The notes under the pieces were generated by a model that saw only the letters and a list, made by a program, of their open reading frames with translations, had not been told where the DNA came from and did no database searches. Below are positions 1-18,355 of a stretch of 26,005 bases of DNA, one piece after another. Source of the DNA: a virus (taxonomy: Duplodnaviria > Heunggongvirae > Uroviricota > Caudoviricetes); the IMG/VR virus record IMGVR_UViG_2703718840_000008; one strand, 5' to 3'. How positions within the stretch are numbered: the first letter of the stretch is position 1; each line of letters opens with the position of its first letter. The translations under genes and the position numbers were made by a program.

Positions 1-258
1 ATGCAAACCGTTATTTTTGGTCGTTCGGGTTGCCCTTACTGTGTGCGTGCAAAAGATCTGGCTGAGAAATTGAGCAATGAACGCGATGATTTTCAGTATC
101 AGTATGTAGATATTCGTGCGGAAGGGATCACTAAAGAAGATCTACAACAAAAGGCAGGTAAACCCGTAGAAACCGTGCCGCAGATTTTTGTCGATCAGCA
201 ACATATCGGCGGCTATACCGATTTTGCTGCATGGGTGAAAGAAAATCTGGACGCCTGA
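1..258 (+). CDS. grxA: Glutaredoxin 1
   Basis: Complete 85-aa ORF with the redox-active CPYC motif (GCPYC); recognised as E. coli GrxA; followed by a hairpin plus T-run. Confidence 0.95.
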   Translation: MQTVIFGRSGCPYCVRAKDLAEKLSNERDDFQYQYVDIRAEGITKEDLQQKAGKPVETVPQIFVDQQHIGGYTDFAAWVKENLDA

Positions 259-934: not shown

Positions 935-2620
935 GTGAATATAAACGTCGCCGAATTGTTAAATGGGAATTACATTCTGTTATTATTTGTGGTCCTCGCG
1001 CTTGGGCTATGTCTCGGAAAGTTACGACTTGGTTCGATCCAACTGGGTAATTCCATTGGCGTTTTAGTCGTATCGCTGTTATTAGGCCAACAACATTTCA
1101 GCATTAACACCGATGCGCTTAATCTTGGCTTTATGCTGTTTATTTTCTGCGTCGGGGTCGAAGCCGGACCGAACTTTTTTTCCATTTTTTTTCGCGATGG
1201 GAAAAATTACCTAATGTTAGCACTGGTGATGGTTGGCAGTGCGCTGGTGATCGCCTTAGGGTTAGGTAAGCTGTTTGGCTGGGATATTGGCCTGACGGCC
1301 GGTATGTTAGCAGGCTCTATGACGTCGACACCGGTTCTGGTCGGTGCTGGCGATACACTGCGTCATTCCGGCATGGAAAGCAGGCAGCTCTCACTGGCAC
1401 TGGATAATCTGAGCCTCGGGTATGCCTTAACCTATTTAATCGGTCTGGTGAGTTTGATTGTTGGTGCGCGTTACTTGCCGAAATTGCAGCATCAGGACTT
1501 ACAGACCAGCGCCCAGCAAATCGCCCGCGAACGTGGCCTGGACACTGATGCCAACCGTAAGGTTTATTTACCGGTGATCCGCGCCTATCGCGTCGGCCCG
1601 GAACTGGTGGCCTGGACCGACGGCAAAAATCTGCGTGAACTGGGTATTTATCGACAAACCGGCTGCTACATTGAACGTATTCGACGTAACGGGATTCTGG
1701 CAAATCCAGACGGTGATGCCGTGCTACAAATGGGCGATGAAATAGCGTTGGTAGGCTATCCCGACGCCCATGCCCGACTCGATCCCAGCTTCCGTAACGG
1801 TAAAGAAGTTTTCGATCGTGACCTTCTCGACATGCGTATCGTCACTGAAGAAGTGGTCGTTAAAAACCATAACGCTGTAGGTAAACGTCTCGCACAACTG
1901 AAGTTGACCGATCACGGTTGCTTCCTTAACCGCGTCATTCGTAGCCAGATTGAGATGCCGATAGATGACAACGTCGTGCTTAACAAAGGTGACGTTTTAC
2001 AAGTCAGCGGCGATGCCCGCCGCGTAAAAACCATCGCCGATCGCATCGGCTTTATCTCGATTCACAGCCAGGTCACTGACCTGCTGGCATTCTGCGCCTT
2101 CTTTGTTATTGGGCTGATGATCGGGATGATCACCTTCCAGTTCAGCACATTCAGTTTCGGCATGGGGAACGCTGCCGGGTTGTTATTCGCCGGAATTATG
2201 CTGGGCTTTATGCGTGCTAACCACCCGACCTTCGGTTACATTCCGCAGGGTGCATTAAGCATGGTGAAAGAGTTCGGCTTGATGGTGTTTATGGCAGGCG
2301 TTGGTCTGAGCGCCGGTAGCGGTATTAATAACGGCCTGGGCGCGATTGGCGGTCAGATGTTGATTGCCGGATTGATTGTCAGTCTGGTGCCCGTGGTTAT
2401 CTGTTTCTTGTTCGGTGCTTATGTATTGCGAATGAACCGCGCGCTGTTGTTCGGCGCAATGATGGGCGCACGTACCTGCGCGCCGGCAATGGAGATCATC
2501 AGTGATACAGCTCGCAGTAACATCCCGGCGCTGGGCTATGCGGGCACCTATGCAATCGCCAACGTCCTGCTGACGCTGGCAGGGACAATCATCGTCATGG
2601 TATGGCCAGGATTAGGATAA
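935..2620 (+). CDS. ybjL: Putative transporter YbjL (AAE family)
   Basis: 561-aa ORF with hydrophobic N- and C-terminal membrane domains and a central soluble region; recognised as E. coli YbjL. Confidence 0.93.
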
Positions 2621-2732: not shown

Positions 2733-2775
2733 CCCATCAACCCCGCCATTTCGGTTCAAGGTTGATGGGTTTTTT
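2733..2775 (+). terminator. Hairpin plus T-run downstream of ybjL; probable host terminator near the prophage junction
   Basis: Perfect 10-bp inverted repeat cccatcaacc (2733-2742) / ggttgatggg (2760-2769) followed by tttttt (2770-2775). Confidence 0.45.
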
Positions 2776-2855
2776 GTTGCCTGAAATTTAAGCTGTTTAA
2801 AATCATGATGTTAGAAGCACTGTTTTTTAACGATGGCGACAAAATGGCGGCAGCG

Positions 2856-3074
2856 TCAAAGAGAGAGCGCCACCTGTCCTGATTTCATTGGATGCGGCTG
2901 AACCGGATTTGACTCTTTTGGCGTTGCAATCGAACGAACAAAAGTTTCATGGGTAACAAAAGTATGGCTGCAGTTAATGTTCTGGCACTGGTTGTAACGC
3001 TCTTTGGTCAATGAAGATACCTGAAAACTGCTGCGAGTATGGGCGGCACTTCCACACAGTGGGCAAATCATCAT
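2856..3074 (-). CDS. ogr: Ogr/Delta-type zinc-finger late-gene transcription activator
   Basis: 72-aa product MMICPLCGSAAHTR...CQNINCSHTF with the Cys4 pattern CxxC...CxxxxC typical of P2 Ogr (72 aa); GGGGAGA RBS 9 nt upstream of the ATG at 3074. The 83-aa track ORF is an upstream extension. Confidence 0.88.
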   Translation of the reverse strand: MMICPLCGSAAHTRSSFQVSSLTKERYNQCQNINCSHTFVTHETFVRSIATPKESNPVQPHPMKSGQVALSL

Positions 3075-3164: not shown

Positions 3165-3878
3165 TCATTCCATTTCGAAATCATCAATCCTCACTTCAAG
3201 CTCCAGACTGGTCGTAAAACCATTATCCGGGCTTACGGTATGCGTCAGAGTCGTAATGGTCCATTCCGCATCATCTATCGGCTGTTTAAAGCCACTGACT
3301 TTCACTGGCATTTCCGTGTAGAGATCTGCCCGCCCTTCCGCCAGTTGTAACGAGAATGACGCAACGCCGCGTTGCAGGCGTTCCCACTGCATTTTCGCCG
3401 CTCGTTCGGCGTTGCTCCGGTTGGCATAAGTGCGATTAAGTACCAGCACGTTTTCATCCGTACCCACCAGGTAATCGCCCTGCTTCGCTTCCGGCTCTTT
3501 CTTCTGCTTCTTAGTCCTGCGCTTACGCTTCACCGTGGTGCTTTCTTTCTTCGCGGGTTCGCGGGTATGCAACCAGCTGGCAATTACGCCCGTGTAGGCT
3601 CCGCGATCTGCCAGGGTAAAGCGGTGACTGTCGCCGTCCTTACGTGTGATAGTGATAACCGGTAGTGGTTTACCGCTGGCGCTTTTACCCTGTCCCTGCC
3701 GGATGAATAACAGATTGCCATTTTTCACCGACGCAATAGCACCGTACTGGCGCGCCAGCCGCATCAGAAAACTGCCGTCACTCTCATTGGTCTGGTCTAT
3801 ATGCTCCACGGGTTTATCCGACAGGTCTTCACCCAATGCCATCTTCAGTTTGTGCCGCGCAGATATTTCCTTCACCAC
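3165..3878 (-). pseudogene. D: Tail protein D, C-terminal fragment (N-terminal ~150 aa missing)
   Basis: 237-aa ORF resembling the middle and C-terminal parts of P2 gpD (387 aa). The reading frame is closed by a stop at 3942-3944 and the track start at 3878 is a GTG; no gpU gene lies between it and the tape-measure ORF. Confidence 0.7.
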
Positions 3879-5836
3879 TTCCCCAACGGTGGTCTTGTGC
3901 CACGATTTTTCACGGCGGGTAGTTTTGCCTTTGCGGCCTCTTTACTGACAATGCCGAGTTTCTCCAGCAACCAGGAAACGCCGGATTTCAGGGAGTCCAG
4001 CGGATGCATGACCATATTCAGCCCTTCCGCCAGTGCCTCCCCGAATCGCCGCCCCATTGCCGCTGCACTCTGCAGTTCGGCAGAGGTCGACTTAACGGGC
4101 GTCAGCAGATCAGTAAACCAGCCCCACAGCGCCTGCACTTTGTCGCCAATCCACTGGAACACAGGCTTAAGCGGTTCGAACGCTGCACTGATGGGACCTG
4201 CCGCCGCTTTGAATCCTTCCACCACGCCACCAAGAAATGCGGTGATGGGTTGCCAGTATTTCCAGACAACCAGTGCCACACCCGCCAGTGCAGTAACCAC
4301 AAGACCTATCGGACTAAGCAGAGCACCTAACAGACCAGATACGGCATACAGGGCAACGCGCAACATCGCCAGCGGACCGGATGCCAGTACTCGCAGCACC
4401 GTGCCTGCGGCAGCCAGCCCGTCGCGTAGTGCTGCCAGTGGATTCATAAACATCACAGCAACCGCACGTAAACCGGATAATCCAGACCGCAACAGTGCAA
4501 CCGGCGCACCTGCTACAGTTTTCAGGACATTTCCCGTCAGTGATGCCGTGCGGCGCAAAGACGACAACGGAGCAGTAAGTAAGCCTGCGGCGTTGCCCGA
4601 TGAAGCAAGCCCGCGTCGCAGCACTGCCAGTGGAGCGCCAGCCAGCCAGGACAACGCGCTGCTGGTTCGTGTTACTGCTGCCGTAACGGAAGGTAACGTT
4701 TTGATGCCCAGCACAGAGAATCCCAGACGGATGACTGCCAGCGGCCCCAGCACTGCAGCCAGCGCCACAGCCAAGGTGCCGAGGCCTACGGTAACCGCAG
4801 CCACAACAGCCGCTACTTTCATCAGTGTGCCCGTCAGTTCCGGGTTAGCTTCGACCCAGCGACGCAACGCTCCCGTAACGCTTTTCACCGTGTACAGAAT
4901 ATCCATCAGCGGCTGGCGCAGCGTTTCGCCCAGGCTGCTGAAGGTATTCTGCGCTCCGGTTTTAACCAGCAACCACTGAGCAGAAAGTGAGTCCTTGTTG
5001 ATGTCGGATTCTTTCTGCATGGAACCGAGCGCATCATTGCCCGCTGTCAGTTTTAGCTGGCGCTGTAGTTCCGGCAGGTTGTTTGCCAGTTTCGCCGCGT
5101 CATCGCCAAACTCTTTACCAAACAACATGGTCATGGCAGACAGACGCTTGTCCTGCGGCAGTGCGTTCACCTTCTCCAGCACACGCTGGATAGTTCCCAT
5201 CGCATCCTTCGTCATCTGCTTTTCAATCACTTCAGGATTGAGTTTCAGCAGATTCATCCCTTCAAAGAAACTCTTGCTTTGCATGGTGGCAATGGACAAT
5301 TCACGCACCATCGCGTTTGCTGCACTGGCTGCAACCTCCGGCGCAGCGCCCAGTGTCAGAAAGGTGGAACCCAGCGCCGCCGCTTTACGATAATCCAGAC
5401 GATCAGCCACACCGCCCAGGCGTTGCATGACATCAATGATGTCTGCCCCTTTCGACAACCACTGACGGTAAGCTGTACCTCCGGTGAGTGCCGGACGTTC
5501 CCGCAGCCGGGTAATGTCAGCAGGCAAAGGAGTATCAGCCCAGCGGCGTAAATCCTCGTTCTCACGTTTCAGTTCCTCGATCCGGTGTTGTCGTTGTCTC
5601 AGCAGTGCGCTGGTCTGTTCTGCTTCGGCATAGAGCCGCGCCTGCTCCCGGTTATTGGTTTCAGTCAGAATGGACAGACCGATCAGCTGGCTGTTTTTCT
5701 TCGTCAGTTCCTGCGCTTTACTTTTCAGCGCCGCGCGCTGCGTTTCGATGGTGTGGCTGGCGCTGTTAAGCCGCCACGACTGCCAGCCCAGCGCAACGAG
5801 TGCCAGCGCCACCACTACTGCCAGCGCACGCGTCAT
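3872..5836 (-). pseudogene. Chimeric ORF: Rz/LysB-like i-spanin N-terminus fused in frame to the C-terminal part of tail tape-measure protein gpT
   Basis: First ~130 aa have a TM helix, coiled coil and the ENEDLRRWADTPLP motif typical of Rz/LysB spanins; the rest is Ala/Gly/Leu-rich repeat sequence typical of tape-measure proteins. Start overlaps the endolysin stop (ATGA). Sheath, tube, baseplate and fibre genes expected between lysB and T are absent. Confidence 0.7.
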
Positions 5837-6348
5837 AGTCCAGCTCCTTTAAGGCACCAGGCCATCTCCCGCGCACGGCGGTTATCCAGCCCCTGATTAA
5901 AAACACCTTTCACATAAACCCAGCGCGGCAACTGTCGGCACGCATCCGCCCAGCGCCGCTGATTGAGCAATTTCACCAGCGTGGAACTGCAGGCATTGCC
6001 CGTTCCCACGTTGAAGGCAAACGACACCGCAGCGTCATACACCTTCTGCGGCGGCTGTTGCTTCACACACCTTTCCAGCGCCCGCTCCACACGCAGCACG
6101 TTGGAGATCAGCCCTTCCGCTGCCTGTCGTTCCGTAATGGTTTTGCCCGGGATGACGCCCGATGTATTACCAATGCCGTCGGTCCAGACACCCGCGCTGC
6201 ACTGATACGGCTGCAGACGACAGCCTTCGTAATCAGCAATCAGTTTCAGCCCCTCCACGGAGGTGTGAAGCTGCTGAAAACCCGGCAGCGTGGCAGTAAT
6301 AGCCAGCACGGTCCCGACAAGGCAGCGTTTAACGATTGATGGATTCAT
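5833..6348 (-). CDS. Endolysin (phage lysozyme family; weakly hydrophobic N-terminus suggests SAR type)
   Basis: 171-aa ORF with N-terminal Gly/Ala/Thr-rich hydrophobic stretch (CLVGTVLAITATLPGF) followed by a lysozyme-like EG...D/E...T region; positioned after the holin as in P2-like lysis cassettes. Confidence 0.85.
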   Translation of the reverse strand: MNPSIVKRCLVGTVLAITATLPGFQQLHTSVEGLKLIADYEGCRLQPYQCSAGVWTDGIGNTSGVIPGKTITERQAAEGLISNVLRVERALERCVKQQPPQKVYDAAVSFAFNVGTGNACSSTLVKLLNQRRWADACRQLPRWVYVKGVFNQGLDNRRAREMAWCLKGAGL

Positions 6349-6544
6349 AGTCCTCCCGCGAGATCTGCCCGTCGCGCAGAAGCTGGTAGGCTTTGTGTTT
6401 GTAGTACCAGTTGATAGCCAGCATCAGCACACCAATCATCAGGCCGCCCAGCGTTGAGGCATCCTTGATGGACAAATCGCCCAGCCAGGCCAGCACGACG
6501 GCGATGCAATACGTGATAAAGGCGCTGATTCGCTCAAGCGTCAT
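6329..6544 (-). CDS. Holin (small, two predicted TM segments)
   Basis: 71-aa ORF with two hydrophobic segments and a charged C-terminus, immediately upstream of and overlapping the endolysin gene. Confidence 0.75.
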   Translation of the reverse strand: MTLERISAFITYCIAVVLAWLGDLSIKDASTLGGLMIGVLMLAINWYYKHKAYQLLRDGQISREDYESINR

Positions 6545-6547
6545 AAT

Positions 6548-6751
6548 TCAGTCCCATAGCTGGACGGTCTGCACGGTGGTGGTTGTCGGTATGTCCGGCA
6601 GCTCCACCTGCAACCCGTGAGGTAAAAAAGGGCCGTATTCGGCAAGCCCCGGATTTGCCTTCAGTACCTGCTCCGTGACACCCTGCGTGCGCCCGTAATG
6701 ACGCCAGCAAAGCGCGTCCACCGTGTCATACTGATGCGCACGCACTTTCAT
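6548..6751 (-). CDS. X: Tail protein X (LysM-like)
   Basis: 67-aa ORF MKVRAHQYDTVDALCWRHYGRT...ANPGLAEYGPFLPHGLQVELPD, recognised as P2 gpX family (67 aa). Confidence 0.85.
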   Translation of the reverse strand: MKVRAHQYDTVDALCWRHYGRTQGVTEQVLKANPGLAEYGPFLPHGLQVELPDIPTTTTVQTVQLWD

Positions 6752-7215
6752 CAGATAAGCTCCACTGTGCAGTGCGGCGCATCCTGCACCCGGCTGATGG
6801 CCCAGCGGGCGTCACGCCACAAATCACCGCTTGCTTCCGCCAGTTCCTCGCCCCGCTTCACACCGGATGCCGTGGCGTCATAGTCCTGATAACGCTCGTT
6901 GAGCATGGCGCGTGCCCAGCAGTAAACCGCGTTGAAATAGTGATGAATGCGCTCACTTTTGCCGTCCAGCTGTTCCGCCGGAACCTCAGCCAGCGACACA
7001 TACCCCAGCATCTGCTGACGTCTGCGAAACTCATACAGCTCTGCGTTGACCTCCGAAATTGCCGACAGCGCAACCTGCTTTAAACGCGGCTGCGTCACCG
7101 TGCCGTCAGTGCGCATGACACAGCGAAACTCCGACAGGTCCACATCAGGCCAGAACGGCGTATTTCTGATGATTTCCGCCTGTTCCGGTGCCTGTTCTGG
7201 CGCAACAAACTTCAT
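6751..7215 (-). CDS. L: Head completion/stabilisation protein gpL
   Basis: ORF between M and X as in P2; start placed at the ATG at 7215 (MKFVAPEQ...) preceded by AGGAGA. The track ORF extends to 7278. Confidence 0.75.
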   Translation of the reverse strand: MKFVAPEQAPEQAEIIRNTPFWPDVDLSEFRCVMRTDGTVTQPRLKQVALSAISEVNAELYEFRRRQQMLGYVSLAEVPAEQLDGKSERIHHYFNAVYCWARAMLNERYQDYDATASGVKRGEELAEASGDLWRDARWAISRVQDAPHCTVELI

Positions 7216-7310
7216 GCTGCTTTCTCCTGAAATAAAGGACGGTGGACGGGGTTTTGATGTGGCAGTGCCTTTCGCCACCCCGTGCCGCCCGTGCGCGGGG
7301 GCACGTTCTG

Positions 7311-7961
7311 TCAGCGGCTGTCATTGCGCAGTCTGCGCTCCAGCTGCTGTTTGTCTTTTTTCACGCCACAGCGGGGATCGAGCTGTAACGCATGGTTGAG
7401 ATGATTAAGGGCGGAAGCCGGATTGCTTTCACTCAGGACAGCGCCAATCGCTTTATGCAGACGCGCCCGTGACTGGTCCGGCATATCCAGACCGTCTGTC
7501 AGTTCCAGCGTCTGCAGCAACAGATCAGCATCAAAGCCGATGGCGGCAAGCATTGCGCTCTGCGCTGCGTCTGCCATTTCCTCTGCCAGCACGGTCTGCA
7601 CGTTGCGGTTACCCAGCGGCATCACCCAGCCATGACGCAGGGCATGACGCCCGATCTCCAGCGCCCCGGCATAATCTCCGGCATCAATGCGCCACAGCAT
7701 CACGTACATCAGTACGTCATCCTGCTGTGCGCCTCCGGCAGCCAGGACACCCTCCGCCCAGGCGGCGTACTTCGGCAGCAGCTCCACTTTGATTTCCGCT
7801 TTTTTGACCGTGGACTGAACGCCCTTGAGACGGCGGCGGTCTTCCGCCAGTTGCAGCAGCATCAGGTCATAGCCCGACGCGTGGCGAACACTGCCGCCCT
7901 CGCGGGCGGCCTGTTCAGCCTGAACGCGCAGGCGATGCTGCCGTGCGGGACTCAGGCTCAT
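7311..7961 (-). CDS. M: Terminase small (endonuclease) subunit gpM
   Basis: 216-aa ORF at the position of P2 gene M between N and L; start overlaps the region just after the N stop. Confidence 0.8.
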   Translation of the reverse strand: MSLSPARQHRLRVQAEQAAREGGSVRHASGYDLMLLQLAEDRRRLKGVQSTVKKAEIKVELLPKYAAWAEGVLAAGGAQQDDVLMYVMLWRIDAGDYAGALEIGRHALRHGWVMPLGNRNVQTVLAEEMADAAQSAMLAAIGFDADLLLQTLELTDGLDMPDQSRARLHKAIGAVLSESNPASALNHLNHALQLDPRCGVKKDKQQLERRLRNDSR

Positions 7962-7964
7962 GGT

Positions 7965-9020
7965 TTATGCTCCGGCTTCTGCGGCGGTGCTGAAGTCGCC
8001 AATCTGGATGTTTTCCACCAGTGCTGTGCAGCGGTAGTCCTCAACCACATAGGCTTCGTTAACGGATTCAAAGTTTTCAATCCGGTCACGTTTCGGGTTG
8101 TCGATAACTGAACGGCGGCGGGTGTCTTCCTGCCAGTAGATGGACAGGTTATCCAGACGGGTGATCAGCAGCGCATTCGGCGGGAAGAACGGCGCACGCA
8201 CGGCCTGCAGGCCACCCATGCGTTTCTGGCTGATGATCATATCGGCAGCCAGTTTTTCACTGTTTTCCTGCTCTTTGTTGACCAGCGGGAAATACTTATC
8301 AGACAACAGTTCACGGCCGCAAATCACCACCAGATCGTCATCGTCCTGGTAGACCACGTCGATAAGCTCATTAACGGCATCCATCACCACGGCGTCCAGG
8401 TTGGCATATTCGCCACCTTTACCGACTTTCACCGCGCCCGGTGTGGTTTCACCGCCCGTGGTGGTGCTGCCCATGACGTGATCCGGTGCATCCTCACGGA
8501 TTTTCTGCAGCCAGCCTTTATTCACATCCTGCAGCAGCGGGTTTTCGCTACGGTTGGAGGTTTTCGCACGCTTCACGCCGTTAAAGCCGATCATGATGCG
8601 GTCCAGTGCCTGACGTTTCACGATGGCGTCACGGATACGCACCTGGAAATCCTGAAACTTCGCCCACAGGTCCAGCTTCGCGTAGGTCAGCACCGTGTCA
8701 AAGTTGGTCTGCTCGCATTTATATTCCACATCGACCATCAGCGTCGGATCGACAGGTTCACGCTCTTTCGCGGTGGTATCAGTGGTTCCGGCAATGGTGC
8801 TGCCAACTCCCAACCCCAGCAGCTGACCGGACTGCTCAGTCACTGGCGTGACGTTAATCAGCGTCAGGAAAGCGGCGGACTGCTGGATCTGGTCTTCCAA
8901 TGTCTGCTGCACGGACGGCTCTACGGTGAACTTGCTGGACAGTTCTTCAACTGCCACACCGTTCAGACGCGCCAGTTGCTGCAGGTAAGCGTTAAAAGCA
9001 AAGCGGGTATTCTTCTTCAT
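7965..9020 (-). CDS. N: Major capsid protein gpN
   Basis: 351-aa ORF; size and position (after scaffold O) match P2 gpN (357 aa). Confidence 0.88.
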   Translation of the reverse strand: MKKNTRFAFNAYLQQLARLNGVAVEELSSKFTVEPSVQQTLEDQIQQSAAFLTLINVTPVTEQSGQLLGLGVGSTIAGTTDTTAKEREPVDPTLMVDVEYKCEQTNFDTVLTYAKLDLWAKFQDFQVRIRDAIVKRQALDRIMIGFNGVKRAKTSNRSENPLLQDVNKGWLQKIREDAPDHVMGSTTTGGETTPGAVKVGKGGEYANLDAVVMDAVNELIDVVYQDDDDLVVICGRELLSDKYFPLVNKEQENSEKLAADMIISQKRMGGLQAVRAPFFPPNALLITRLDNLSIYWQEDTRRRSVIDNPKRDRIENFESVNEAYVVEDYRCTALVENIQIGDFSTAAEAGA

Positions 9021-9036
9021 CAGGTTTTGTGCTCCA

Positions 9037-9870
9037 TCAGCAATTGGTCAGAGTGTCAGCGGGGGCGTTACCACCTGTTGCACGCTGGCGGTAGTCCTGG
9101 CGGCTGTCTTCTTGGCTCAGCTTGTCCACCAGTTCGTTAAAGGCGGTCTGCTGTGCCTGCAGGGCAGTCTCCAGCTCAGACAGGCGTTCTTCCTGCTCAG
9201 ACAGGGATTTTTCGGTGCGCGCACTCAGGTTCTGCTGCTCAGTGGCGACCAGTTCCACGGCCTTATGCACATCAGAGAACCGGGCGTCATCGGACTGCTC
9301 TTTTTTGGTGAACAGCGCCGTGACACGGGCAAACAGGGACGGCTTGTCCTCCTGGATTTCTTCCAGTTCGATCACCGTTTCCTCTGCGGCGGTAAAGAGA
9401 TTGGCGGGATTTTGCTTGCGGTTTGCCAGCGGGTTATGGGCTGCACTGGCGCTGAATGCCAGCATTTCAGTGCCCAGGCTGGCAGGGTCATCAGTGGCAG
9501 CCAGCCCGACCAGGTAGGCTTTGCCCGTATCAGCAAACTTTGGGCTGACTTCCATAGAGGTGAATAATTTCTGGCCTTTTTTCACTAGCTCCACCAGGGA
9601 CTCTGTTGGCTCAACGTCGGCATACAGCGCCATCTTGCCTGCCAGCGGACCTTCCGTGATTTCTTCAGCAAACAGCGCCGTCACCTTGCCGTAGCGGTTA
9701 AAGGTGCTGTCCGGCAGATAAGACTTGATGTGCTCAAGGTTAATCAGCGCGGTATACACCGCCGGGTTGTAGCTGGCTGCCATCTGTTCCAGCCATTCAC
9801 GCTGGATTTCGCGTCCGTCGGTGGTGGCACCTTCCACCCCGATGCGAAAACGCTTTGCTTTCACTGTCAT
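9037..9870 (-). CDS. O: Capsid scaffolding protein gpO
   Basis: 277-aa ORF with acidic coiled-coil C-terminus, divergent from P as in P2 (O about 284 aa). Confidence 0.85.
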   Translation of the reverse strand: MTVKAKRFRIGVEGATTDGREIQREWLEQMAASYNPAVYTALINLEHIKSYLPDSTFNRYGKVTALFAEEITEGPLAGKMALYADVEPTESLVELVKKGQKLFTSMEVSPKFADTGKAYLVGLAATDDPASLGTEMLAFSASAAHNPLANRKQNPANLFTAAEETVIELEEIQEDKPSLFARVTALFTKKEQSDDARFSDVHKAVELVATEQQNLSARTEKSLSEQEERLSELETALQAQQTAFNELVDKLSQEDSRQDYRQRATGGNAPADTLTNC

Positions 9871-9948
9871 GAGCCGTGCTCCGTTAGAAAAAACTTACTG
9901 GAGCCTTATGGTTGCGGCGATGGGGGCAGTGAAACAATGCGCGGTATT

Positions 9949-9966
9949 TGTACCGACAACCACACA
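9949..9966. promoter_or_regulatory. Candidate Ogr-binding element (TGT-N12-ACA) of a late promoter in the O/P divergent region
   Basis: tgt accgacaaccac aca lies about 45-65 bp upstream of the P start codon, matching the TGT-N12-ACA dyad described for P2/186 late promoters. Confidence 0.45.
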
Positions 9967-10012
9967 AACCGCAGGCGGGGAAAGCCTTCATTCAAGGCTG
10001 TAGGTTTGTGCC

Positions 10013-11779
10013 ATGAACACCACACTGACACCCGCAGATCTCGATCCCCGTCGGCAGGCCATGCTGCTGTACTTTCAGGGATACCGCGTAGCCCGCATTG
10101 CTGAAATGCTGGGCGAGAAAGTTGCAACCGTTCACAGCTGGAAAAAACGCGACAAGTGGGGTGACTATGGGCCGCTGGACCAGATGCAGCTCACCACCGC
10201 CGCACGCTACTGCCAGCTCATCATGAAGGAGCACAAAGAAGGGAAAGATTTCAAAGAGATTGACCTGCTGGCGCGCCAGTCTGAGCGCCACGCGCGGATC
10301 GGCAAGTTTAACAATGGCGGCAACGAAGCCGACTTAAACCCTAACGTCGCCAACCGCAATAAAGGCCCACGCCGTCAGCCGGAAAAGAATGTTTTCACCG
10401 ATGAGCAGATTGAGAAGCTGGAAGAAATCTTCCATTCCTCCATGTTCAACTACCAGCGCCACTGGTGGGAAGCCGGAAAAACCAACCGCATCCGCAACCT
10501 GCTGAAGTCTCGCCAGATCGGCGCGACCTTCTATTTTGCCCGTGAAGCCCTGATTGACGCCCTGCTTACCGGACGCAACCAGATTTTCCTTTCTGCCAGT
10601 AAGGCTCAGGCCCACGTCTTTAAACAATACATCATCGACTTCGCCAAAGAAGTGGAGGTGGAGCTGAAAGGCGATCCGATGGTGCTTCCTAACGGGGCCA
10701 CGCTTTACTTCCTCGGCACCAATGCCCGCACGGCCCAGAGTTACCACGGCAACCTGTATCTGGATGAATATTTCTGGATACCGAAATTCCAGGAGCTGCG
10801 CAAAGTGGCTTCCGGTATGGCTATTCACAAAAAATGGCGACAAACCTATTTTTCCACGCCATCCAGCCTGACACACAGTGCTTATCCGTTCTGGTCCGGT
10901 GCGCTGTTCAACCGTGGGCGCAACAAAGCTGACAAGGTGGACATCGACCTGTCCCACAGCAATCTGGCCCCCGGCCTGCTGTGCGCAGACGGGCAATACC
11001 GCCAGATAGTCACCGTGGAAGATGCGGTGCGCGGCGGCTGTAACCTGTTCGACCTCGACCAGTTGCGCATGGAGTACAGCCCGGACGAATACCAGAACCT
11101 GCTGATGTGTGAGTTCGTGGACGATCTCGCGTCCGTGTTCCCGCTCAGCGAGCTGCAGGCGTGCATGGTGGACAGTTGGGAAGTCTGGACCGACTTTCAT
11201 GCACTGGCGCTGCGCCCGTTTGGCTGGCGCGAAGTGTGGATCGGTTATGACCCGGCAAAAGGTACGCAGAACGGCGACAGTGCCGGATGCGTGGTGGTGG
11301 CTCCGCCAGCCGTGCCGGGTGGTAAGTTCCGCATTCTTGAGCGTCACCAGTGGCGCGGGATGGACTTCCGCGCCCAGGCTGACGCCATCAAAAAACTCAC
11401 CGAACAGTACAACGTTACGTATATCGGTATCGACTCGACCGGCGTTGGTCACGGGGTTTATGAGAACGTGAAAGCGTTCTTTCCTGCCGTCCGGGAGTTT
11501 GTCTATAACCCCAATGTTAAAAATGCCTTGGTACTCAAGGCCTACGACATTATCAGCCACCGCCGTCTGGAGTTTGACGCCGGACACACTGACATTGCGC
11601 AGTCATTCATGGCAATCCGTCGCGCAACCACCGCCAGCGGCAACCGCCCGACCTATGAAGCCAGCCGCAGCGAAGAAGCCAGCCACGCCGATCTGGCCTG
11701 GGCAACAATGCACGCACTGTTTAACGAACCGCTGCAGGGCGAATCCGCCAATACCAGCAATATTGTGGAGATTTTTTGA
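10013..11779 (+). CDS. P: Terminase large (ATPase) subunit gpP
   Basis: 588-aa ORF; length and position match P2 gpP (about 590 aa); stop overlaps the Q start (TGATG). Confidence 0.9.
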   Translation: MNTTLTPADLDPRRQAMLLYFQGYRVARIAEMLGEKVATVHSWKKRDKWGDYGPLDQMQLTTAARYCQLIMKEHKEGKDFKEIDLLARQSERHARIGKFNNGGNEADLNPNVANRNKGPRRQPEKNVFTDEQIEKLEEIFHSSMFNYQRHWWEAGKTNRIRNLLKSRQIGATFYFAREALIDALLTGRNQIFLSASKAQAHVFKQYIIDFAKEVEVELKGDPMVLPNGATLYFLGTNARTAQSYHGNLYLDEYFWIPKFQELRKVASGMAIHKKWRQTYFSTPSSLTHSAYPFWSGALFNRGRNKADKVDIDLSHSNLAPGLLCADGQYRQIVTVEDAVRGGCNLFDLDQLRMEYSPDEYQNLLMCEFVDDLASVFPLSELQACMVDSWEVWTDFHALALRPFGWREVWIGYDPAKGTQNGDSAGCVVVAPPAVPGGKFRILERHQWRGMDFRAQADAIKKLTEQYNVTYIGIDSTGVGHGVYENVKAFFPAVREFVYNPNVKNALVLKAYDIISHRRLEFDAGHTDIAQSFMAIRRATTASGNRPTYEASRSEEASHADLAWATMHALFNEPLQGESANTSNIVEIF

Positions 11780-12807
11780 TGGGTAAGAGTGAGAAGAACC
11801 GCGCTGCGGCGACGAAACAGATCCAGCTTAAAAGCCAGACTACAGCCGAAGCATTCAGCTTCGGCGATCCCGTTCCTGTTCTGGACCGCCGAGAACTGCT
11901 GGACTATGTGGAATGCGTACAGATGGACCGTTGGTATGAGCCGCCCGTCAGCTTTGACGGACTGGCGCGCACCTTCCGCGCTGCCGTGCATCACAGTTCC
12001 CCGATTGCAGTAAAGTGCAACATTCTGACCAGTACCTATATCCCTCATCCGCTGCTCAGCCAGCAGGCTTTTTCGCGTTTTGTGCAGGACTATCTGGTAT
12101 TTGGTAACGCCTACCTGGAGAAACGCACGAACCGATTCGGTGAAGTTATCGCCCTTGAGCCTGCGCTGGCAAAATACACCCGACGCGGGTTAGACCTGGA
12201 TACCTACTGGTTTGTGCAATACGGTATGACAACCCAGCCGTATCAGTTCACGAAAGGCAGCATTTTTCATCTGATGGAACCGGACATCAACCAGGAGATC
12301 TACGGCCTGCCCGGTTATCTTTCTGCCATTCCGTCAGCCCTGCTCAACGAGTCCGCCACGCTGTTCCGCCGCAAGTATTACATTAACGGTAGCCATGCAG
12401 GCTTCATCATGTATATGACCGATGCCGCGCAGAACCAGGAAGATGTGAACAACCTCCGCAACGCAATGAAAAGCGCCAAAGGCCCTGGCAACTTCCGCAA
12501 TCTGTTTATGTACTCGCCTAACGGCAAAAAGGACGGACTTCAGATCATCCCGTTGTCAGAAGTCGCAGCGAAAGATGAATTTCTTAACATCAAGAACGTG
12601 AGTCGTGATGACATGATGGCCGCGCATCGTGTTCCGCCACAGATGATGGGGATTATGCCGAATAATGTTGGGGGTTTTGGGGATGTGGAGAAGGCTAGTA
12701 AGGTTTTTGTGATAAATGAATTAATTCCTTTGCAAAAACGATTTATGGAAATAAACGCATGGCTCGGGGAGAAACTTATAGAATTTTCTCCATATGAGCT
12801 TAACTAA
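11779..12807 (+). CDS. Q: Portal protein gpQ
   Basis: 342-aa product from the ATG at 11779 (track ORF begins at a TTG 3 nt upstream); matches P2 gpQ in size (about 344 aa) and position. The last ~40 codons are markedly AT-rich. Confidence 0.88.
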   Translation: MGKSEKNRAAATKQIQLKSQTTAEAFSFGDPVPVLDRRELLDYVECVQMDRWYEPPVSFDGLARTFRAAVHHSSPIAVKCNILTSTYIPHPLLSQQAFSRFVQDYLVFGNAYLEKRTNRFGEVIALEPALAKYTRRGLDLDTYWFVQYGMTTQPYQFTKGSIFHLMEPDINQEIYGLPGYLSAIPSALLNESATLFRRKYYINGSHAGFIMYMTDAAQNQEDVNNLRNAMKSAKGPGNFRNLFMYSPNGKKDGLQIIPLSEVAAKDEFLNIKNVSRDDMMAAHRVPPQMMGIMPNNVGGFGDVEKASKVFVINELIPLQKRFMEINAWLGEKLIEFSPYELN

Positions 12808-12856: not shown

Positions 12857-15193
12857 TTACAAATATGTATTGCTATGTAGAGATGTGTTTATTCCATCTT
12901 CTATCTCAATTTTTGACGAAGCATACTCATCATTCGCACTATCATCAATATCAAACTCATCTTGTAGATGAAGTGACTCATTTAACGGTTTATAAAACTC
13001 ACCCATCATCATTTTGTAATGGGCAGTATGCTCACTACACTCAAATATCTTCTGAAAAACAATTAAATATTTTTGCACAGACTCCGTATCTAAATTCATA
13101 TAAAGATCATCACCTGCAAAATGAGAACCATCATTAATCCATGACACTAAAGATTTAAATATGATTTTTTCATCACCATAAAAATGACACTCAAGCTTCC
13201 TAATATCCATCCCTCCTAATATCTTAAAGTAATTCTCCAAAATCCTTCGCATTGTATTTTGTATAGTATTATTATTAATATCTGTTCTTCTCAATTCGCA
13301 CCAGAGCAAATCATAAGACGTTTTTATTGGGTTTGATTCGCACTTTTCAAGATATGAGACCTTCCCTTTTTTCCTTACAATCCAAAAAGTCTCCTCTTTC
13401 ATTGCTTGATTACCGGATCTTTTAGTATTAAAAGTCAACTCTTTATGAAAATAAATATTATGCGTAAGGAATATAATTTGCTTAATATTTCCTTCATCCT
13501 TACGAACATCCTCCATTAAATCTTTAATCAACGAACTTACAATAAACAGAATATCACTATCTAAACTTGAAATTGGATCATCAAATACTACAACACGATC
13601 ATCTAAAACACCTGATGCATTATCACTCCCTCTAACAAGACTATAAAAATACAAAAAAGTGATAAATGTCTTTTCTCCCTCGCTAAGAGTTGTACGAGCA
13701 TTATCTCCACTATCTCTCACTATCATATAATGCTTTTTATCTTCGGAGGGTTTTAAGTAAAAATTTTTGAAGCCATAAGAATCCAGAATCTTGTTAATTT
13801 TTGTAATAGTTGGAAGAGTACTGGTTTTATTAGACTCAATTGCCTCAATAGCCGAAGCATTTAACATTAACTTCTTTTTGTCTTCCTCTAACCCAGATTT
13901 AAGTCCTTGTAACCTCCTACTAAATTTATCAGATTCGCTACGGTAAGAAGTTATTTCAGACTTTAACTCCACCTTTACGATATATGCCCATATCTGATTA
14001 GAAAGATTACTAACCTCTACCTTTCTATTACTGTGTATTTTGTTATTATTATCTATCAATAGATTTGAATCATTCAAAAAAGAAATAAAATCATCAACAA
14101 CTTCACTTAAGTCACTAAAATGAACTGATTCACTTAAAAAATTGCGTTTGTTTTTTGCTAATTCAAAATTCTTGTTTAATTCAGATAATACTATCTTAGC
14201 CTTATCCTCAAATACTTCATAATTTATGAATGGAGATTTAATCGCCCTTATATCATCTATCGCCTGCAAGATATTATTAAGTTGATGTTCATATTGTAAA
14301 ACCAATGCATCGATTTCTCTTTTTTTTAACTCATATGTTTTATCAAAATATGATGATAGATTATCAAATATATTATCATTTACATCCTGCTGGCAGAATG
14401 GGCACTTGGGATTAGATTTACTGAAATATGTTAAACCTTCCTTAACCCAATCACTGTTATTGAGCATTGTAATTAAGTCTGAAACACTAACGTCTTTTTT
14501 CCCTAGAATACGCTCACTCCAAATCTCCCTACTCAAAATATCATCTATCCCATTGAAGGATGGAATTGTAATTGATACATGTGATGTCAATTCAGTAGAA
14601 AAAACAATTTTTGCTTTCTCAATTAGCTCTGCTATTGAGCAAACTTCTGATGTGTTATTTTCATACTCAGCCAACACTCTAGCTTTAAATTTTTCACTAC
14701 TATTCCTTAATCCCTCAAAAGCCTTTGAGAACACATTATCATGTTTTATTTTTTGCTTCCAACATGAATCTTTAAAAGATTTTTCATGGTCTTCGATTTG
14801 TTTAACAACGCCTAATATATTATCACCACCATCTATTAGCTTTTCCTTTGCTATAATAGATTCTATTAGCTTATTTTTTTCTTCTTCAAGAGATATTAGT
14901 TTCTCTTCATCCTCCTTAAGATCGCTACCAAGGGTAAATACACCTTTAATTTTATCTTGACTAAAATTTCTTTCAACAAAATCTTTATTATATACGTAGC
15001 TTATTAAAGATATATTATTTTTCCATTTAATCGGACATGTTGGATATTGTTCAGGGTCATTAATAATTTTACTTATAGTTGTTTTACCTGCACCATTAGC
15101 TCCATATAAATAGTTAAATTTAGAAAGCCCATGTAAAAGCTGAGTAGGGCCATTATATGAGCCTACTTTGTCAATAACTACCTCTTCAATCAT
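12857..15193 (-). CDS. RloC/PrrC-like ABC-type ATPase (AAA_13-like) with Rad50-type CxxC zinc hook; candidate anticodon nuclease / abortive-infection protein
   Basis: 778-aa ORF, ~30% GC. N-terminal Walker A GANGAGKTT; long predicted coiled-coil region containing CPFC; ABC signature-like LSEGEK; Walker B VVVFDDPISSLD; H-loop-like FLTHN; C-terminal ~200 aa with an RRILE (R-x3-E) motif and downstream His residues, reminiscent of the PrrC/RloC nuclease triad. GAGGA RBS upstream. Confidence 0.6.
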   Translation of the reverse strand: MIEEVVIDKVGSYNGPTQLLHGLSKFNYLYGANGAGKTTISKIINDPEQYPTCPIKWKNNISLISYVYNKDFVERNFSQDKIKGVFTLGSDLKEDEEKLISLEEEKNKLIESIIAKEKLIDGGDNILGVVKQIEDHEKSFKDSCWKQKIKHDNVFSKAFEGLRNSSEKFKARVLAEYENNTSEVCSIAELIEKAKIVFSTELTSHVSITIPSFNGIDDILSREIWSERILGKKDVSVSDLITMLNNSDWVKEGLTYFSKSNPKCPFCQQDVNDNIFDNLSSYFDKTYELKKREIDALVLQYEHQLNNILQAIDDIRAIKSPFINYEVFEDKAKIVLSELNKNFELAKNKRNFLSESVHFSDLSEVVDDFISFLNDSNLLIDNNNKIHSNRKVEVSNLSNQIWAYIVKVELKSEITSYRSESDKFSRRLQGLKSGLEEDKKKLMLNASAIEAIESNKTSTLPTITKINKILDSYGFKNFYLKPSEDKKHYMIVRDSGDNARTTLSEGEKTFITFLYFYSLVRGSDNASGVLDDRVVVFDDPISSLDSDILFIVSSLIKDLMEDVRKDEGNIKQIIFLTHNIYFHKELTFNTKRSGNQAMKEETFWIVRKKGKVSYLEKCESNPIKTSYDLLWCELRRTDINNNTIQNTMRRILENYFKILGGMDIRKLECHFYGDEKIIFKSLVSWINDGSHFAGDDLYMNLDTESVQKYLIVFQKIFECSEHTAHYKMMMGEFYKPLNESLHLQDEFDIDDSANDEYASSKIEIEDGINTSLHSNTYL

Positions 15194-15326
15194 CCTCTAA
15201 TCCTCAAAAAACAGATTAATCCTATCAAATCAATGATAATAGAAGACATTACTTACCTAATTACAAGGTGATCATTTATACAGCTGTGAATAAATCAGGC
15301 TAATCATCTATTTGTCATAACGCGCG

Positions 15327-15345
15327 CTCGTATCCCCGCCACGCC
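15327..15345. other. Candidate cos site (cohesive-end sequence) of the P2/186-like phage
   Basis: Reverse complement reads GGCGTGGCGGGGATACGAG followed by CGCGCG, matching the conserved GGCG(A/T)GGCGGGGA start of the P2 and 186 cohesive ends as I recall them; lies in a GC-normal island between two AT-rich cargo cassettes, oriented toward Q. Confidence 0.5.
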
Positions 15346-15897
15346 TGCCCGCTTTATGCAGTGATTTTCATGCACCTGCATGACATAAGCGAAAGCCCGC
15401 CAGTTCTGGGGGGCCTCAGCAAAAACGATCCTCAAACGATCATGCAATTTCATGCAGCATAGTCATGCACAGCCAAGAGAAGTGAAAATCCGTATCTGAA
15501 TGACCACTTAAAAAACGAAATATACGGGTTTACAAACATGGAGGTTCACTGTGAGCGAAGAGCGGAAGTTGCCTTAATTAGGTTACATGGGGGACAAATG
15601 TTACTAGCATGATTATGCGGGATACTTACAATACCACGCCTTAATTGCTTTGTTATCCCACCAGAAAGTCATGGAGCCGCAACTGATAAGAAAATTGTTG
15701 TAAAAGTGCCAGTTGGTTACTCTGAATTTCTGCTTAGCCAGGAGAGTGCCTGCGTTGTCAGCGAATGCGTAAGTTGATCCTTCAATGCAGAAATAGTTCA
15801 ATTTATTAAACAACACTCCTGGCGGGATTAACGCCGCATCTATAATGCGTGAGAGTGTGCATGCGCAATTTCAGCAAAAAAATTGAAAATAGCGCTA

Positions 15898-16869
15898 CTA
15901 ACTTCCCTTTATTTTTAGTTCGTTAAAAATATCTTCGATTACCAATCCATTTTTAATTAAATGCTGCACAATATTTTCATATTCTTTGAAATTGTCAATA
16001 TGCAAGCCATGATCTTTTTCTTTAGCAATTCTCGTGATCACATGTACGCTATCTATATAATCAATCTTATTTTTAAGAGCATTGAGCAAACTTATACTTG
16101 GATTTAAAGTTGAGATTAGTTTACCAAACTCGGTTTGTAACTCTTTGGATTGATGAGTATTAATATAATCTTCAATAAAAGCATCAAAATCTCCTTGCAA
16201 CTCAACTTTAAGGTTTGCTATATCCTTCATAATATTTTCTAACTCAGAAGAGTATGGCCGACCATGTTTAAAATCGAATAAAAAAAGATTTGCTTTCTCA
16301 ATACATTCGCAAATATAAAAAACTGTATAAAGGGAATATTTTTGCTTAACTTTTAATTTTCCATAGGCGTAGTGAACCAAAAGATGCTTAGCATTAATAA
16401 CATTTTTATTTTTTGAAAGTTGATTGTTAGTTGCAGGCGGATAAATTACCACATCAACATTATCTAAATTTTGAAAAGTTTTTAAAATAAGAGCCTCAAC
16501 CTTATTCCAATCGAGGCCCCCATTACCACAGCCTAAAGGTGGTATTGATATTGATGTAATTTTTTTTTCATCTATAATTTTTGCTAAAGATTCAAGGCCT
16601 TGCGAGATAAAATCATATGTTGATTTTTTTCTCCAACTATCTTTAGTGGGAAAGTTTACAATTATTTTTCCCTTTTCCTCTACAATTAAAACCTGTCCAA
16701 TTTTCATTGTACCAGTGGCGCATGCTCTCTTATAAACTTCGAAATTATAGGGAAAAGTTTCTTTAAAAGCCAAAGCAATACCCTTTCCCATGACTCCTTG
16801 GCAGTTTACAGCATTCACAAGAGCTTGCGATGTAGAGTTTAGAAGATTTCCGCTTGCATACTTAATCAT
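15898..16869 (-). CDS. darG: DarG-like antitoxin (N-terminal macrodomain, ADP-ribosyl hydrolase)
   Basis: 323-aa ORF; N-terminal ~150 aa show macrodomain hallmarks (GNLL, ALVNAVNC, GVMGKGIALAF, IPPLGCGNGGL); starts 4 nt after the darT stop, giving the toxin-then-antitoxin operon order. Confidence 0.75.
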   Translation of the reverse strand: MIKYASGNLLNSTSQALVNAVNCQGVMGKGIALAFKETFPYNFEVYKRACATGTMKIGQVLIVEEKGKIIVNFPTKDSWRKKSTYDFISQGLESLAKIIDEKKITSISIPPLGCGNGGLDWNKVEALILKTFQNLDNVDVVIYPPATNNQLSKNKNVINAKHLLVHYAYGKLKVKQKYSLYTVFYICECIEKANLFLFDFKHGRPYSSELENIMKDIANLKVELQGDFDAFIEDYINTHQSKELQTEFGKLISTLNPSISLLNALKNKIDYIDSVHVITRIAKEKDHGLHIDNFKEYENIVQHLIKNGLVIEDIFNELKIKGS

Positions 16870-16873
16870 AGAA

Positions 16874-17455
16874 TTAGAACATATAAGTGTTGATCGTTAT
16901 CAATATACTTAATCCTTGTTGTTTTATCAACCCTTCAACATATTTTTTTTCGTTATCATTTTTGACAAAGATGCAATGGAAATTTTTCGGCTCGACCGTT
17001 ACACTTGATAAACACTCAGCCATACATACAGATTTGCATTCTGCATTTTTATAATCCCTTATATTCATTAGCTCCCAGTCAATTTGGGCCATTCCTTGTT
17101 CATAATCTAAGAGGTCTATAACAGAACTGGTGGATAATGGATGTTTAGGTATAACTTTCCAACCATTTTCTTTGGCAAATGCCCGACAAACCGAAATAAT
17201 ACAAAATGATTTTTCCTTATGATCTTTCAGGACTCTTCCATCAAATGGATTCTTAGTAAAGAAATGAAAAGGAACCATTGTTTGCAAATTTAATGCTTCG
17301 CGACCTGTTATTATTTCACCGTCGGCCACATCAACAAACTCACCTTTTACTGATGCACGAGATCTTAATCCTGTGTCTAAAATACTAGGTAGATTATCCA
17401 TACATGTTAAATGATAGAGAAGATACTGATCTTCAATTCTTTTCCTTTCGCTCAT
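16874..17455 (-). CDS. darT: DarT-like toxin (DUF4433 ssDNA ADP-ribosyltransferase)
   Basis: 193-aa ORF with YLLYHLTCMDNLPSIL N-terminal motif, MVPFHFF, and a glutamate in CMAECL, matching the DarT family pattern as I recall it; AGGA-type RBS upstream. Confidence 0.72.
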   Translation of the reverse strand: MSERKRIEDQYLLYHLTCMDNLPSILDTGLRSRASVKGEFVDVADGEIITGREALNLQTMVPFHFFTKNPFDGRVLKDHKEKSFCIISVCRAFAKENGWKVIPKHPLSTSSVIDLLDYEQGMAQIDWELMNIRDYKNAECKSVCMAECLSSVTVEPKNFHCIFVKNDNEKKYVEGLIKQQGLSILITINTYMF

Positions 17456-17922
17456 TTCAACTCATCCTTTCAAATTCGTAAGTCTATTTATAGAACCAAA
17501 CCTCACTGACAGTCAAGGTTTTTAAGATTATTCACATTGCCTTCTGCCTGTCGATCTAATTATTTTCGATTTTTTGGGTATGATTTGGCATTATTGATAT
17601 ACAAGGTAAAACAATTTTTCAGTAGTTTACTGACGCTGAGTGATTACGATTGCTAGCTTGGGAAGGCAATGGCCATAGTGCATGTGCTGAACAAAATGAA
17701 AAAGGCAGGGACATTCTGGTCTTCCCCATGAGTATGGATTTTCATTGCATCGATGGGTATGAGCAACGTCCCCTTGATTAAGGATAGCGTTGCATCGTCC
17801 CGTTGAACTCACAACACAAATCGTACAATCACTTATCAAAATGGCCGCCCACCTTACGCCTCGTTTCACTCGCTACCCAAACTAGCCCCCATCAGAATGA
17901 ATCCTCCTGGGGGCAACGTTTC

Positions 17923-18156
17923 TTAATGCAGCCAGCTGTCGTCTTCCCACACCTTCTGCATAATTTTCATCACTTGTTTTCTTTCTTCATCCAGTTGCAG
18001 TCCGGTCAGTTCCACACCGTTAGAGCTACCTTTACGGATACGAATTACCGTTTTGGGATATAGGGGGCGCAGATTGCGGTAAAGCTCGGATTCAAGGGCG
18101 TCCAGGGTAGACTGGCTAATCTTCTGCTCTTTATCGATCATTATTTCAATGCGCAT
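17923..18156 (-). CDS. DinI-like protein (equivalent to the C-terminal domain of 186 antirepressor Tum)
   Basis: 77-aa product from the ATG at 18156 (MRIEIMIDKEQKIS...ESELYRNL...KIMQKVWEDDSW) resembling DinI; GAGGTG RBS overlaps the stop of the upstream ORF. The 101-aa track ORF is an upstream extension. Confidence 0.7.
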   Translation of the reverse strand: MRIEIMIDKEQKISQSTLDALESELYRNLRPLYPKTVIRIRKGSSNGVELTGLQLDEERKQVMKIMQKVWEDDSWLH

Positions 18157-18166
18157 AAAAGTCACC

Positions 18167-18355
18167 TCAACTGATGACATCCATTGAGCGGTTGTATTCG
18201 TGGGTTCTGATTTTTGCCATGAGTTCATCTGTCAGTTCAGAAACCCACTGCAGGGCCAGCCCCTTCTCTTCATCACTACACTCACTAGCCGCTACAAGCT
18301 TAAGAAAAAAATCAATGCGCTGGAGCTTCAAAGACTCCAAAAAATAGTCCTGCAT
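18167..18355 (-). CDS. Small protein, possible N-terminal part of a Tum-like antirepressor (SOS-controlled)
   Basis: 62-aa ORF from the ATG at 18355 preceded by AGGAGG; translationally coupled to the dinI-like ORF; a LexA box lies 45-60 bp upstream. Confidence 0.5.
   Translation of the reverse strand: MQDYFLESLKLQRIDFFLKLVAASECSDEEKGLALQWVSELTDELMAKIRTHEYNRSMDVIS

Follow-up and report, generated by a model that had tools for sequence, protein, structure and literature searches.

The in-frame LysB::T fusion of an Escherichia coli P2/186-like prophage, a probable scar of two deletions

A stretch of 26,005 nucleotides (IMG/VR record IMGVR_UViG_2703718840_000008; the whole stretch is called the window below) carries a 654-codon ORF that begins like a spanin gene and continues like a tape measure gene. 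Is this a new kind of gene, or what is left after a tail module was lost? The original prediction, made from the letters alone, took the ORF for an in-frame spanin-tape measure fusion that marks a single deletion of the whole tail module, with capsid and lysis functions retained. The ORF itself was confirmed, and it lies on the minus strand, which had not been given. As argued below, it is very probably a chimeric pseudogene without function, left behind by two deletions, and not a new kind of gene.

Where does the ORF lie? The window runs from the E. coli chromosome into a P2/186-like prophage and ends at the integrase stop codon, so that the prophage spans from attR to the end of the window (Table 1). 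The attR core was placed by a collinear BLAST match of window positions 2665-3921 to positions 33540-32284 of the record of Klebsiella phage 4LV2017. On the source contig LOOF01000014.1 (GCA_001576305.1), ogr abuts ybjL, and the integrase gene is directly followed by rcdA-ybjJ-ybjI-ybjH-mdfA. Since the element is bounded by ybjL and rcdA there, no tail genes are hidden outside the window, and the possibility of tail genes elsewhere in the element, which would have spoken against the original prediction, is excluded. Between the att sites, the gene order (Q-P / O-N-M-L-X-holin-lysin ... D-ogr-att-int-CI/CII-A) and the sequence identities are those of Peduoviridae. By these features the prophage is assigned to the P2/186-like phages, integrated between ybjL and rcdA in E. 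coli.

Table 1. Features of the window around the fusion ORF and in the rest of the element (the relative is the prophage of E. coli 2018-11-3CC)
Feature	Position	Strand	Remarks
grxA	1..258		E. coli chromosomal flank; followed by ybjM
ybjL	935..2620		Chromosomal flank on the ogr side of the prophage
attR core	2765..2783	.	Directly downstream of ybjL; equivalent to the annotated attR (33422-33440) of Klebsiella phage 4LV2017
ogr (late-gene activator)	2856..3074	-	72 aa, intact; PF04606 Ogr_Delta, E = 6.7e-22; 72/72 identical to the relative
gpD remnant	3165..3921	-	About residues 116-366 of 366; native start missing; mechanical ORF 3165..3878
Chimeric ORF	3872..5836	-	654 codons, ATG to stop; three parts (LysB, gpT, frameshifted gpD)
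Frameshifted gpD tail of the ORF	3872..3916	-	14 codons and stop, out of frame; peptide AVKNRGTRPPLGKW
Junction 2 (T::D)	3918..3921	-	4-bp microhomology TACC (phage orientation); 1,334 bp deleted; D out of frame
gpT part of the ORF	about 3918..5452	-	Residues 345-857 of 1025; 513/513 identical to a 1025-aa gpT
Truncated o-spanin LysC	5356..5565	-	Native signal peptide, lipobox and 17 mature residues, then 32 out-of-frame T codons
LysB part of the ORF	5453..5836	-	Residues 1-128 of 142; 128/128 identical to LysB of an intact relative
Junction 1 (lysB::T)	5454..5457	-	4-bp microhomology TGTC (phage orientation); 11,194 bp deleted; in frame
Endolysin (lysozyme)	5833..6348	-	Intact; PF00959, E = 4.7e-40; 171/171 identical; its stop codon and the ATG of the chimeric ORF overlap
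Holin	6329..6544	-	Intact; 100% identical over the full length to the relative
Tail protein X	6548..6751	-	Intact; 100% identical over the full length to the relative
Head and packaging module L, M, N, O, P, Q	6751..12807	L, M, N, O -; P, Q +	Intact; each 100% identical over the full length to the relative
Accessory and early region	12857..26005		PDC-S06 ATPase, DarG/DarT, DinI-like, gpA, Dam, TraR, Fil, CII, Apl/Cox-like, CI, integrase; full length or nearly so

The two halves of the fusion were recognized correctly. The N-terminal part matches the NCBIfam profile TIGR03495 (phage_LysB; N-terminal transmembrane helix and periplasmic coiled coil) with 165.1 bits, above the cut-off of 92.75, over profile positions 2-129 of 135. 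The motif ENEDLRRWADTPLP, which the original prediction had picked out as part of an Rz/LysB-type spanin, is present at about residues 92-105. The tape-measure-like continuation occupies ORF residues 129-640 and covers profile positions 131-349 of 349 in TIGR01760 and positions 92-201 of 201 in PF10145, the latter with 30.5 bits, which is under the cut-off of 33.2. Thus, the N-terminus is spanin-like and the ORF is not a full-length tape measure; either finding in the opposite sense would have spoken against the fusion. A complete tape measure would come with its chaperone, tube and sheath genes; what was found is a gpT fragment, and E, E+E', FI, FII and U have no match in the window. Downstream of the fusion, the ORF 3165..3878 is identical to gpD residues 130-366 of an intact relative at 236 of 237 positions, and this remnant matches PF05954 over profile positions 111-302 of 305 only.

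What joined these parts? When 5,426 complete E. coli genomes were searched, many prophages of this family turned up at the same locus, and the window was compared with them. The closest intact reference among them is the prophage of E. coli 2018-11-3CC (NZ_AP021895.1), which lies at the same ybjL/rcdA locus and has a complete late gene set; it provides the intact version that had been proposed as a check. BLAST aligned the window to this prophage in segments of 3,921, 1,540 and 8,810 bp with 1, 1 and 3 mismatches, respectively. That is, the two differ by five mismatches in 14.3 kb of collinear DNA, and the alignment is interrupted at two points only.

At junction 1, the missing segment corresponds to positions 24293-35486 of locus L003 of the relative. 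In the three-way alignment, the lysB side reads CAGTGGTTGTC followed by CGCGAG, the T side reads GCCATGTC followed by GAAAGG, and the window reads CAGTGGTTGTCGAAAGG, with TGTC common to all three. Both the lysB and the T sides are in codon phase 1, and for this reason the junction is in frame. At junction 2, the missing segment is 21423-22756 of the same locus; the T side reads AAACTACC followed by GGAAAG, the D side GAATACC followed by CGCCGTG, and the window AAACTACCCGCCGTG, with TACC in common. Here the codon phases of T and D differ, and the ORF thus ends with wrong-frame gpD codons and a stop at position 3872. Deletion 2 took 168 residues from the C-terminus of T, the whole of gpU and roughly the first 115 codons of gpD.

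The two deletions add up to 12,528 bp relative to the 2018-11-3CC prophage, which agrees with the predicted loss of over 10 kb. The in-frame LysB::T fusion does mark the loss of tail genes, as had been claimed. The view of a single deletion was incomplete, since it missed the second, out-of-frame deletion from T to D, along with the frameshifted gpD codons and the truncation of LysC. Relative to Klebsiella phage 4LV2017, the loss is about 8.8 and 1.3 kb. This phage gives approximate junctions only, because identity in its lysB region is only 87% and an additional gene separates the endolysin gene from lysB. A third deletion at that place was considered and rejected; the extra gene is also absent from the closest intact E. 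coli relative.

Microhomology at the junctions had also been proposed as something to look for, and exactly 4 bp was found at each of them. From the formula P(k) = (k+1)(1/4)^k(3/4)^2, the calculated chance of at least 4 bp for random pairs of breaks is about 0.016 per junction; the observed lengths are thus above chance expectation. Short microhomology is a signature of RecA-independent illegitimate recombination, by slipped mispairing or microhomology-mediated joining.

Which genes have been lost? Each annotated protein of the intact relative was used as a tblastn query against the window. Seventeen tail-region genes gave no match there, namely U, E+E', E, FII, FI, the invertase gene, the alternative fibre gene and the gene of its assembly protein, a small hypothetical gene, H, I, J, W, V, the DUF6216 gene, S and R. 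The predicted absence of the genes between lysB and T was thereby borne out. LysB, LysC, T and D gave partial matches only. An intact gpX and a C-terminal remnant of gpD persist. The complete virion gene set of a viable P2/186-like prophage is therefore not there, with 17 tail-region genes absent and four genes truncated, and the defective element measures about 23 kb, roughly 65% of the parental genome.

Alignments of full or almost full length were obtained for the remaining 27 prophage genes that were compared. As predicted, no damage is seen in the genes for the head, packaging, replication, regulation and the integrase. Ogr, the endolysin, the holin, X, L, M, N, O, P, Q, the AAA ATPase, DarG, the DinI-like protein and a 62-aa hypothetical protein are 100% identical without gaps over the full length. 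DarT, A, Dam, TraR, DUF2732, DUF5347, Fil, CII, CI and a 63-aa protein are full length at 88-99.5% identity. For the Apl/Cox-like protein, 66 of 73 residues align, and for the integrase 338 of 343, the ends reflecting mosaic or att sequence divergence; against 4LV2017, the integrase is full length. Both defence loci have stayed whole, with 100% identity to the relative for DarG and the ATPase and 99.5% for DarT. The early and immunity region as a whole has 98.0% DNA identity to 2018-11-3CC, with CI at 88% amino-acid identity, and this greater divergence indicates a mosaic history. The regulators of the element are of the 186 type (CI, CII, Apl-like, Fil and a DinI/Tum-like protein). A P2 cos sequence gave no match at up to three mismatches, which carries little weight for a 186-like phage. 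cos is presumably intact, since the window and the intact relative are nearly identical across Q and the DNA next to it.

The lysis genes had also been counted as intact, and this does not hold. LysB has lost its last 14 residues, with T sequence in their place. LysC, whose gene overlaps lysB, retains 37 of the 96 codons of the intact reading frame, and its match to NF038368 (P2_Rz1) covers profile positions 2-37 of 85 only. Spanin subunits interact via their C-termini, and i-spanins of the overlapped architecture diverge at the C-terminal extremity (PMC6139136). The loss of the extreme C-terminus of LysB alone might be tolerated; the loss of LysC is not in doubt. Neither the native LysB C-terminus nor an o-spanin with a complete periplasmic domain, which together characterize a spanin complex, was found. 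As both spanin subunits are broken, lysis is not intact, and only the holin and the endolysin are whole. Judging from the encoded proteins, the outer-membrane step of lysis is expected to fail. In the lambda system, loss of the spanins halts lysis at the stage of spherical cells, above all when divalent cations are present.

Is the fusion common? The exact fusion occurs in only about 3-4 draft assemblies; its protein stands under three E. coli accessions (KJJ78479.1, KXQ21685.1 and KXR96772.1) and on about four contigs, the longest of which, LOOF01000014.1, has 258 kb. Public records label it as 'tape measure protein T' or 'hypothetical protein'; it would be better annotated as a pseudogene or a fusion remnant. 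When 120-mers spanning the junctions were searched in the 5,426 complete E. coli genomes, neither junction was found (0 places with at least 80% coverage), and no intermediate with a single deletion was seen among the same genomes. The flanking halves occur in their native context in 803 and 932 complete genomes for the two junctions. The intact late region is covered to at least 80% in 652 of the 5,426 genomes; below these come versions at all stages of decay, E. coli B REL606 among them.

Other prophages at this locus have lost tail genes as well. EC71 has a deletion from lysB/lysC to just upstream of T and a second one from the capsid region (O) through cII. In isolateD and several others, the deletion runs from downstream of V to the middle of T; WWCOL-315 has deletions from the endolysin gene to a fibre-assembly gene and from the invertase gene to D. 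The tail deletions of EC71, isolateD and WWCOL-315 have different breakpoints and are independent of the fusion. Decayed relatives also lack head or early genes in no obvious pattern, and P2-like prophages that are defective and yet have whole defence genes are documented at scale (PMC13586616). The five mismatches to the intact prophage, the lack of substitutions in the LysB and T parts and the rarity of the fusion point to a young event. The fusion-bearing element is thus best read as a young, lineage-private defective prophage, one recent case of common decay.

I consider it very likely that two deletions by microhomology-mediated illegitimate recombination within a P2/186-like prophage, that is, ordinary prophage decay, account for the locus. 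One deletion brought lysB codon 128 next to T codon 345 at the common TGTC, and the frame was kept by chance; the other brought T codon 857 next to about codon 116 of D at the common TACC, out of frame. With them went R, S, V, W, J, I, H, the fibre-switching cassette, FI, FII, E, E+E' and U. By its gene content, the element is a tail-less and spanin-less defective prophage. The original prediction found it notable that the frame of the fusion stays open over ~650 codons. Both parental frames, LysB and T, are unchanged and a junction has a 1-in-3 chance of being in frame, and so the long ORF is not notable. Selection on the fusion was rejected on the same chance, the lack of substitutions relative to the parents and the extreme rarity.

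In a lysogen, CI would hold the late genes silent, and the fusion would cost nothing. The element may be SOS-inducible, given its 186-type regulators. After induction, Ogr would activate the late O-operon, and the fusion would be transcribed and translationally coupled to the endolysin gene. The LysB transmembrane helix would anchor the product in the inner membrane, where it would presumably be useless both as a spanin, with its LysC partner gone, and as a tape measure, with both ends, tube, sheath and chaperones missing. The element could nevertheless excise and replicate, and it could build capsids and perhaps fill them; the holin and endolysin could still permeabilise the cell. A genome of ~23 kb might be packaged inefficiently, and infectious particles would not be expected to form without a helper.

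Could the element be functional in its present form? It might be an evolved capsid-forming satellite or 'tail pirate', which fills its own capsids with its DNA and takes tails from a co-resident P2-like helper, the fusion being tolerated or adaptive. Its head, terminase, portal, head-completion, replication, regulatory and integrase genes are all intact, its cos-containing region is near-identical to that of the intact phage, P2-like prophages are common enough in E. coli to make helpers plausible, and tail-less variants recur at the ybjL-rcdA locus. However, the few mismatches that remain besides the two deletions leave no time for the evolution of a satellite, and the dead fragments of T, D and LysC do not form a clean architecture. 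A satellite of the cf-PICI or P4-like type would be a distinct evolved lineage with its own architecture and helper-dependent regulation, present in many genomes; this element was seen on about four contigs and in none of the complete genomes, and no helper-sensing genes of the satellite type were seen in it. The other tail-less variants differ in breakpoints and have further random losses (EC71, O through cII), and cos-to-cos packaging of ~23 kb in a full-size head may be inefficient. An evolved satellite is highly unlikely on these grounds. It is very unlikely, too, that the derivative is nevertheless still mobile as a newly born 'tail pirate', through SOS-induced excision, replication, capsid filling and then the tails of a co-resident P2-like prophage. 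If it were, capsid-forming satellites could arise from complete phages in a single step, and the element would spread its DarTG and PDC-S06 defence cargo.

The intact and nearly identical DarG, DarT and ATPase may instead suggest that the host has kept the DarTG and PDC-S06 defence while virion production was disarmed, tail loss being selected. Defective P2-like elements with conserved defence genes have been reported (PMC13586616), and tail losses recur at this locus. Nevertheless, a tail deletion leaves induction, replication and killing by holin and endolysin in place and does not disarm the prophage for its host; the fusion event is rare and recent, and the decayed relatives have lost head or early genes with no obvious pattern. 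Moreover, the tail module makes up about one third of the genome, and random deletions should often land there. Such adaptive domestication is extremely unlikely here. The source genomes are draft assemblies, and a contig collapsed across the tail region would produce the same picture. The identical 654-aa protein stands under three NCBI accessions, and about four contigs carry it; both junctions are in unique sequence, and the 4 bp shared at each are far too few to collapse an assembly graph; the chance of an artefact is negligible. Ordinary decay by two deletions is thus the preferred reading. It provides a clean and datable example, with two short-microhomology deletions and an almost identical intact parent, and adds to the evidence that P2-like prophages at ybjL-rcdA repeatedly lose tail genes and keep defence cargo. 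For phage-prediction pipelines, the element is a reminder that whole head, replication and integrase modules do not guarantee a functional prophage.

How does the element compare with known ones? The E. coli 2018-11-3CC prophage shares its integration site and gene order, with 99.97% nucleotide identity in the shared late region, and the window differs from it by lacking the 12.5 kb that comprise the 17 tail-region genes and parts of lysB, lysC, T and D. Klebsiella phage 4LV2017 (Peduoviridae, Elveevirus) has the same site and gene order at about 96-97% nucleotide identity in the shared late region. In the remnant of E. coli B REL606, EC71, isolateD and WWCOL-315, internal deletions leave partial modules as they do here. 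In defective P2-like prophages of E. coli, ogr and a fragment of D often survive beside the attachment site, again as here; ogrK-yegZ (gpD fragment) of K-12 is another such remnant. The present element differs from other defective P2-like prophages in its breakpoints, which are independent of theirs, in its long in-frame LysB::T ORF and in the intactness of every non-tail gene except lysB and lysC. The cf-PICIs encode capsids and packaging, lack tails and use those of a helper, and the likeness is in gene content only; they are evolved and widespread and have their own regulation, whereas this element appears to be a days-to-decades-old deletion derivative with pseudogene debris. R-type tailocins are also derivatives of P2-like prophages that keep one morphogenetic module. 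In contrast to this element, they have kept tails and lysis, lost heads and replication, and are conserved and functional, which is the opposite outcome.

Related prophages at the ybjL-rcdA locus (those of EC71, isolateD, and WWCOL-315) show at least three further tail-module deletions. Their breakpoints differ and the events are independent, and two of these three variants also have the two-deletion structure. The LysB::gpT chimeric ORF itself has been deposited as KJJ78479.1, KXQ21685.1, and KXR96772.1 under the name "phage tail tape measure protein T" or "hypothetical protein", and clustering at 90% groups it under a 142-aa LysB representative. Fusions of this kind can mislead annotation and clustering alike.

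Is there a third deletion, between the endolysin gene and lysB? Klebsiella phage 4LV2017 and isolateD carry in this interval, at the LysA position, a 125-aa gene that is absent from the window. This candidate deletion was rejected, since the gene is also absent from the intact closest relative, the prophage of E. coli 2018-11-3CC (NZ_AP021895.1). The presence or absence of this gene is natural cassette variation. The lysB segment of the window is only 87-89% identical to those of 4LV2017 and isolateD. As for the overlapping o-spanin gene lysC, the RefSeq start of the 82-aa LysC of the relative falls within the signal peptide's hydrophobic core. If the protein is instead read from a GTG that lies 14 codons further upstream, it has a canonical lipoprotein signal, MRTRIYAAGLILLCLLTLPG|C. 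The RefSeq start is probably misannotated.

Coordinates of the features discussed (L001, Klebsiella phage 4LV2017; L003, a region of the 2018-11-3CC prophage; L005, isolateD)
Feature	Location	Strand	Corresponding window position	Remark
lysC	L003 35304-35594 (NZ_AP021895.1)		5523-5565	
125-aa gene, "DNZ54_00345 family"	L001 19897-20274 and L005 8656-9033		5818-5855	
AAA_13 ATPase, 778 aa	window 12857-15193	minus		adjoins portal gene
DarT/DarG toxin-antitoxin defence pair	window 15898-17455	minus		intact; PADLOC

The late region of the window is 99.97% identical to that of the 2018-11-3CC prophage, whereas identity drops to 98.0%, with 14 gaps, in the early region (window 12804-26005 against L006, a second region of that prophage). 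Divergence is greater still in the immunity region; the CI proteins are 88% identical in amino acids, and window 23857-24014 does not align to L006. This contrast indicates that related prophages have recombined with each other. Where the integrase gene ends and the flank on the rcdA side begins, the relative has about 350 bp extra (L006 13126-13475), which contain an 89-aa ORF. This segment is missing at the corresponding place in the window (25962-26005), and the final 5 residues of the window's integrase differ accordingly from those of the relative. A short IS5/IS1182 transposase fragment is annotated in the relative between the ATPase and DarG genes (L006 2831-2938). Since the window is collinear with L006, the same remnant should be present at about 15630-15745.

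The DarT/DarG pair lies in an accessory region, with a DinI-like gene on one side and the portal-side hotspot on the other. The PADLOC E-values are 9.8e-81 for DarG and 2.2e-36 for DarT, and the NCBIfam scores of the pair fall under the equivalog cut-offs. The position of the AAA_13 ATPase gene is that of the P2 "old" hotspot. Along its full length, the ATPase is a match to PDC-S06, a candidate defence family (E = 8e-266), and PrrC and LmuB are weakly similar to it.
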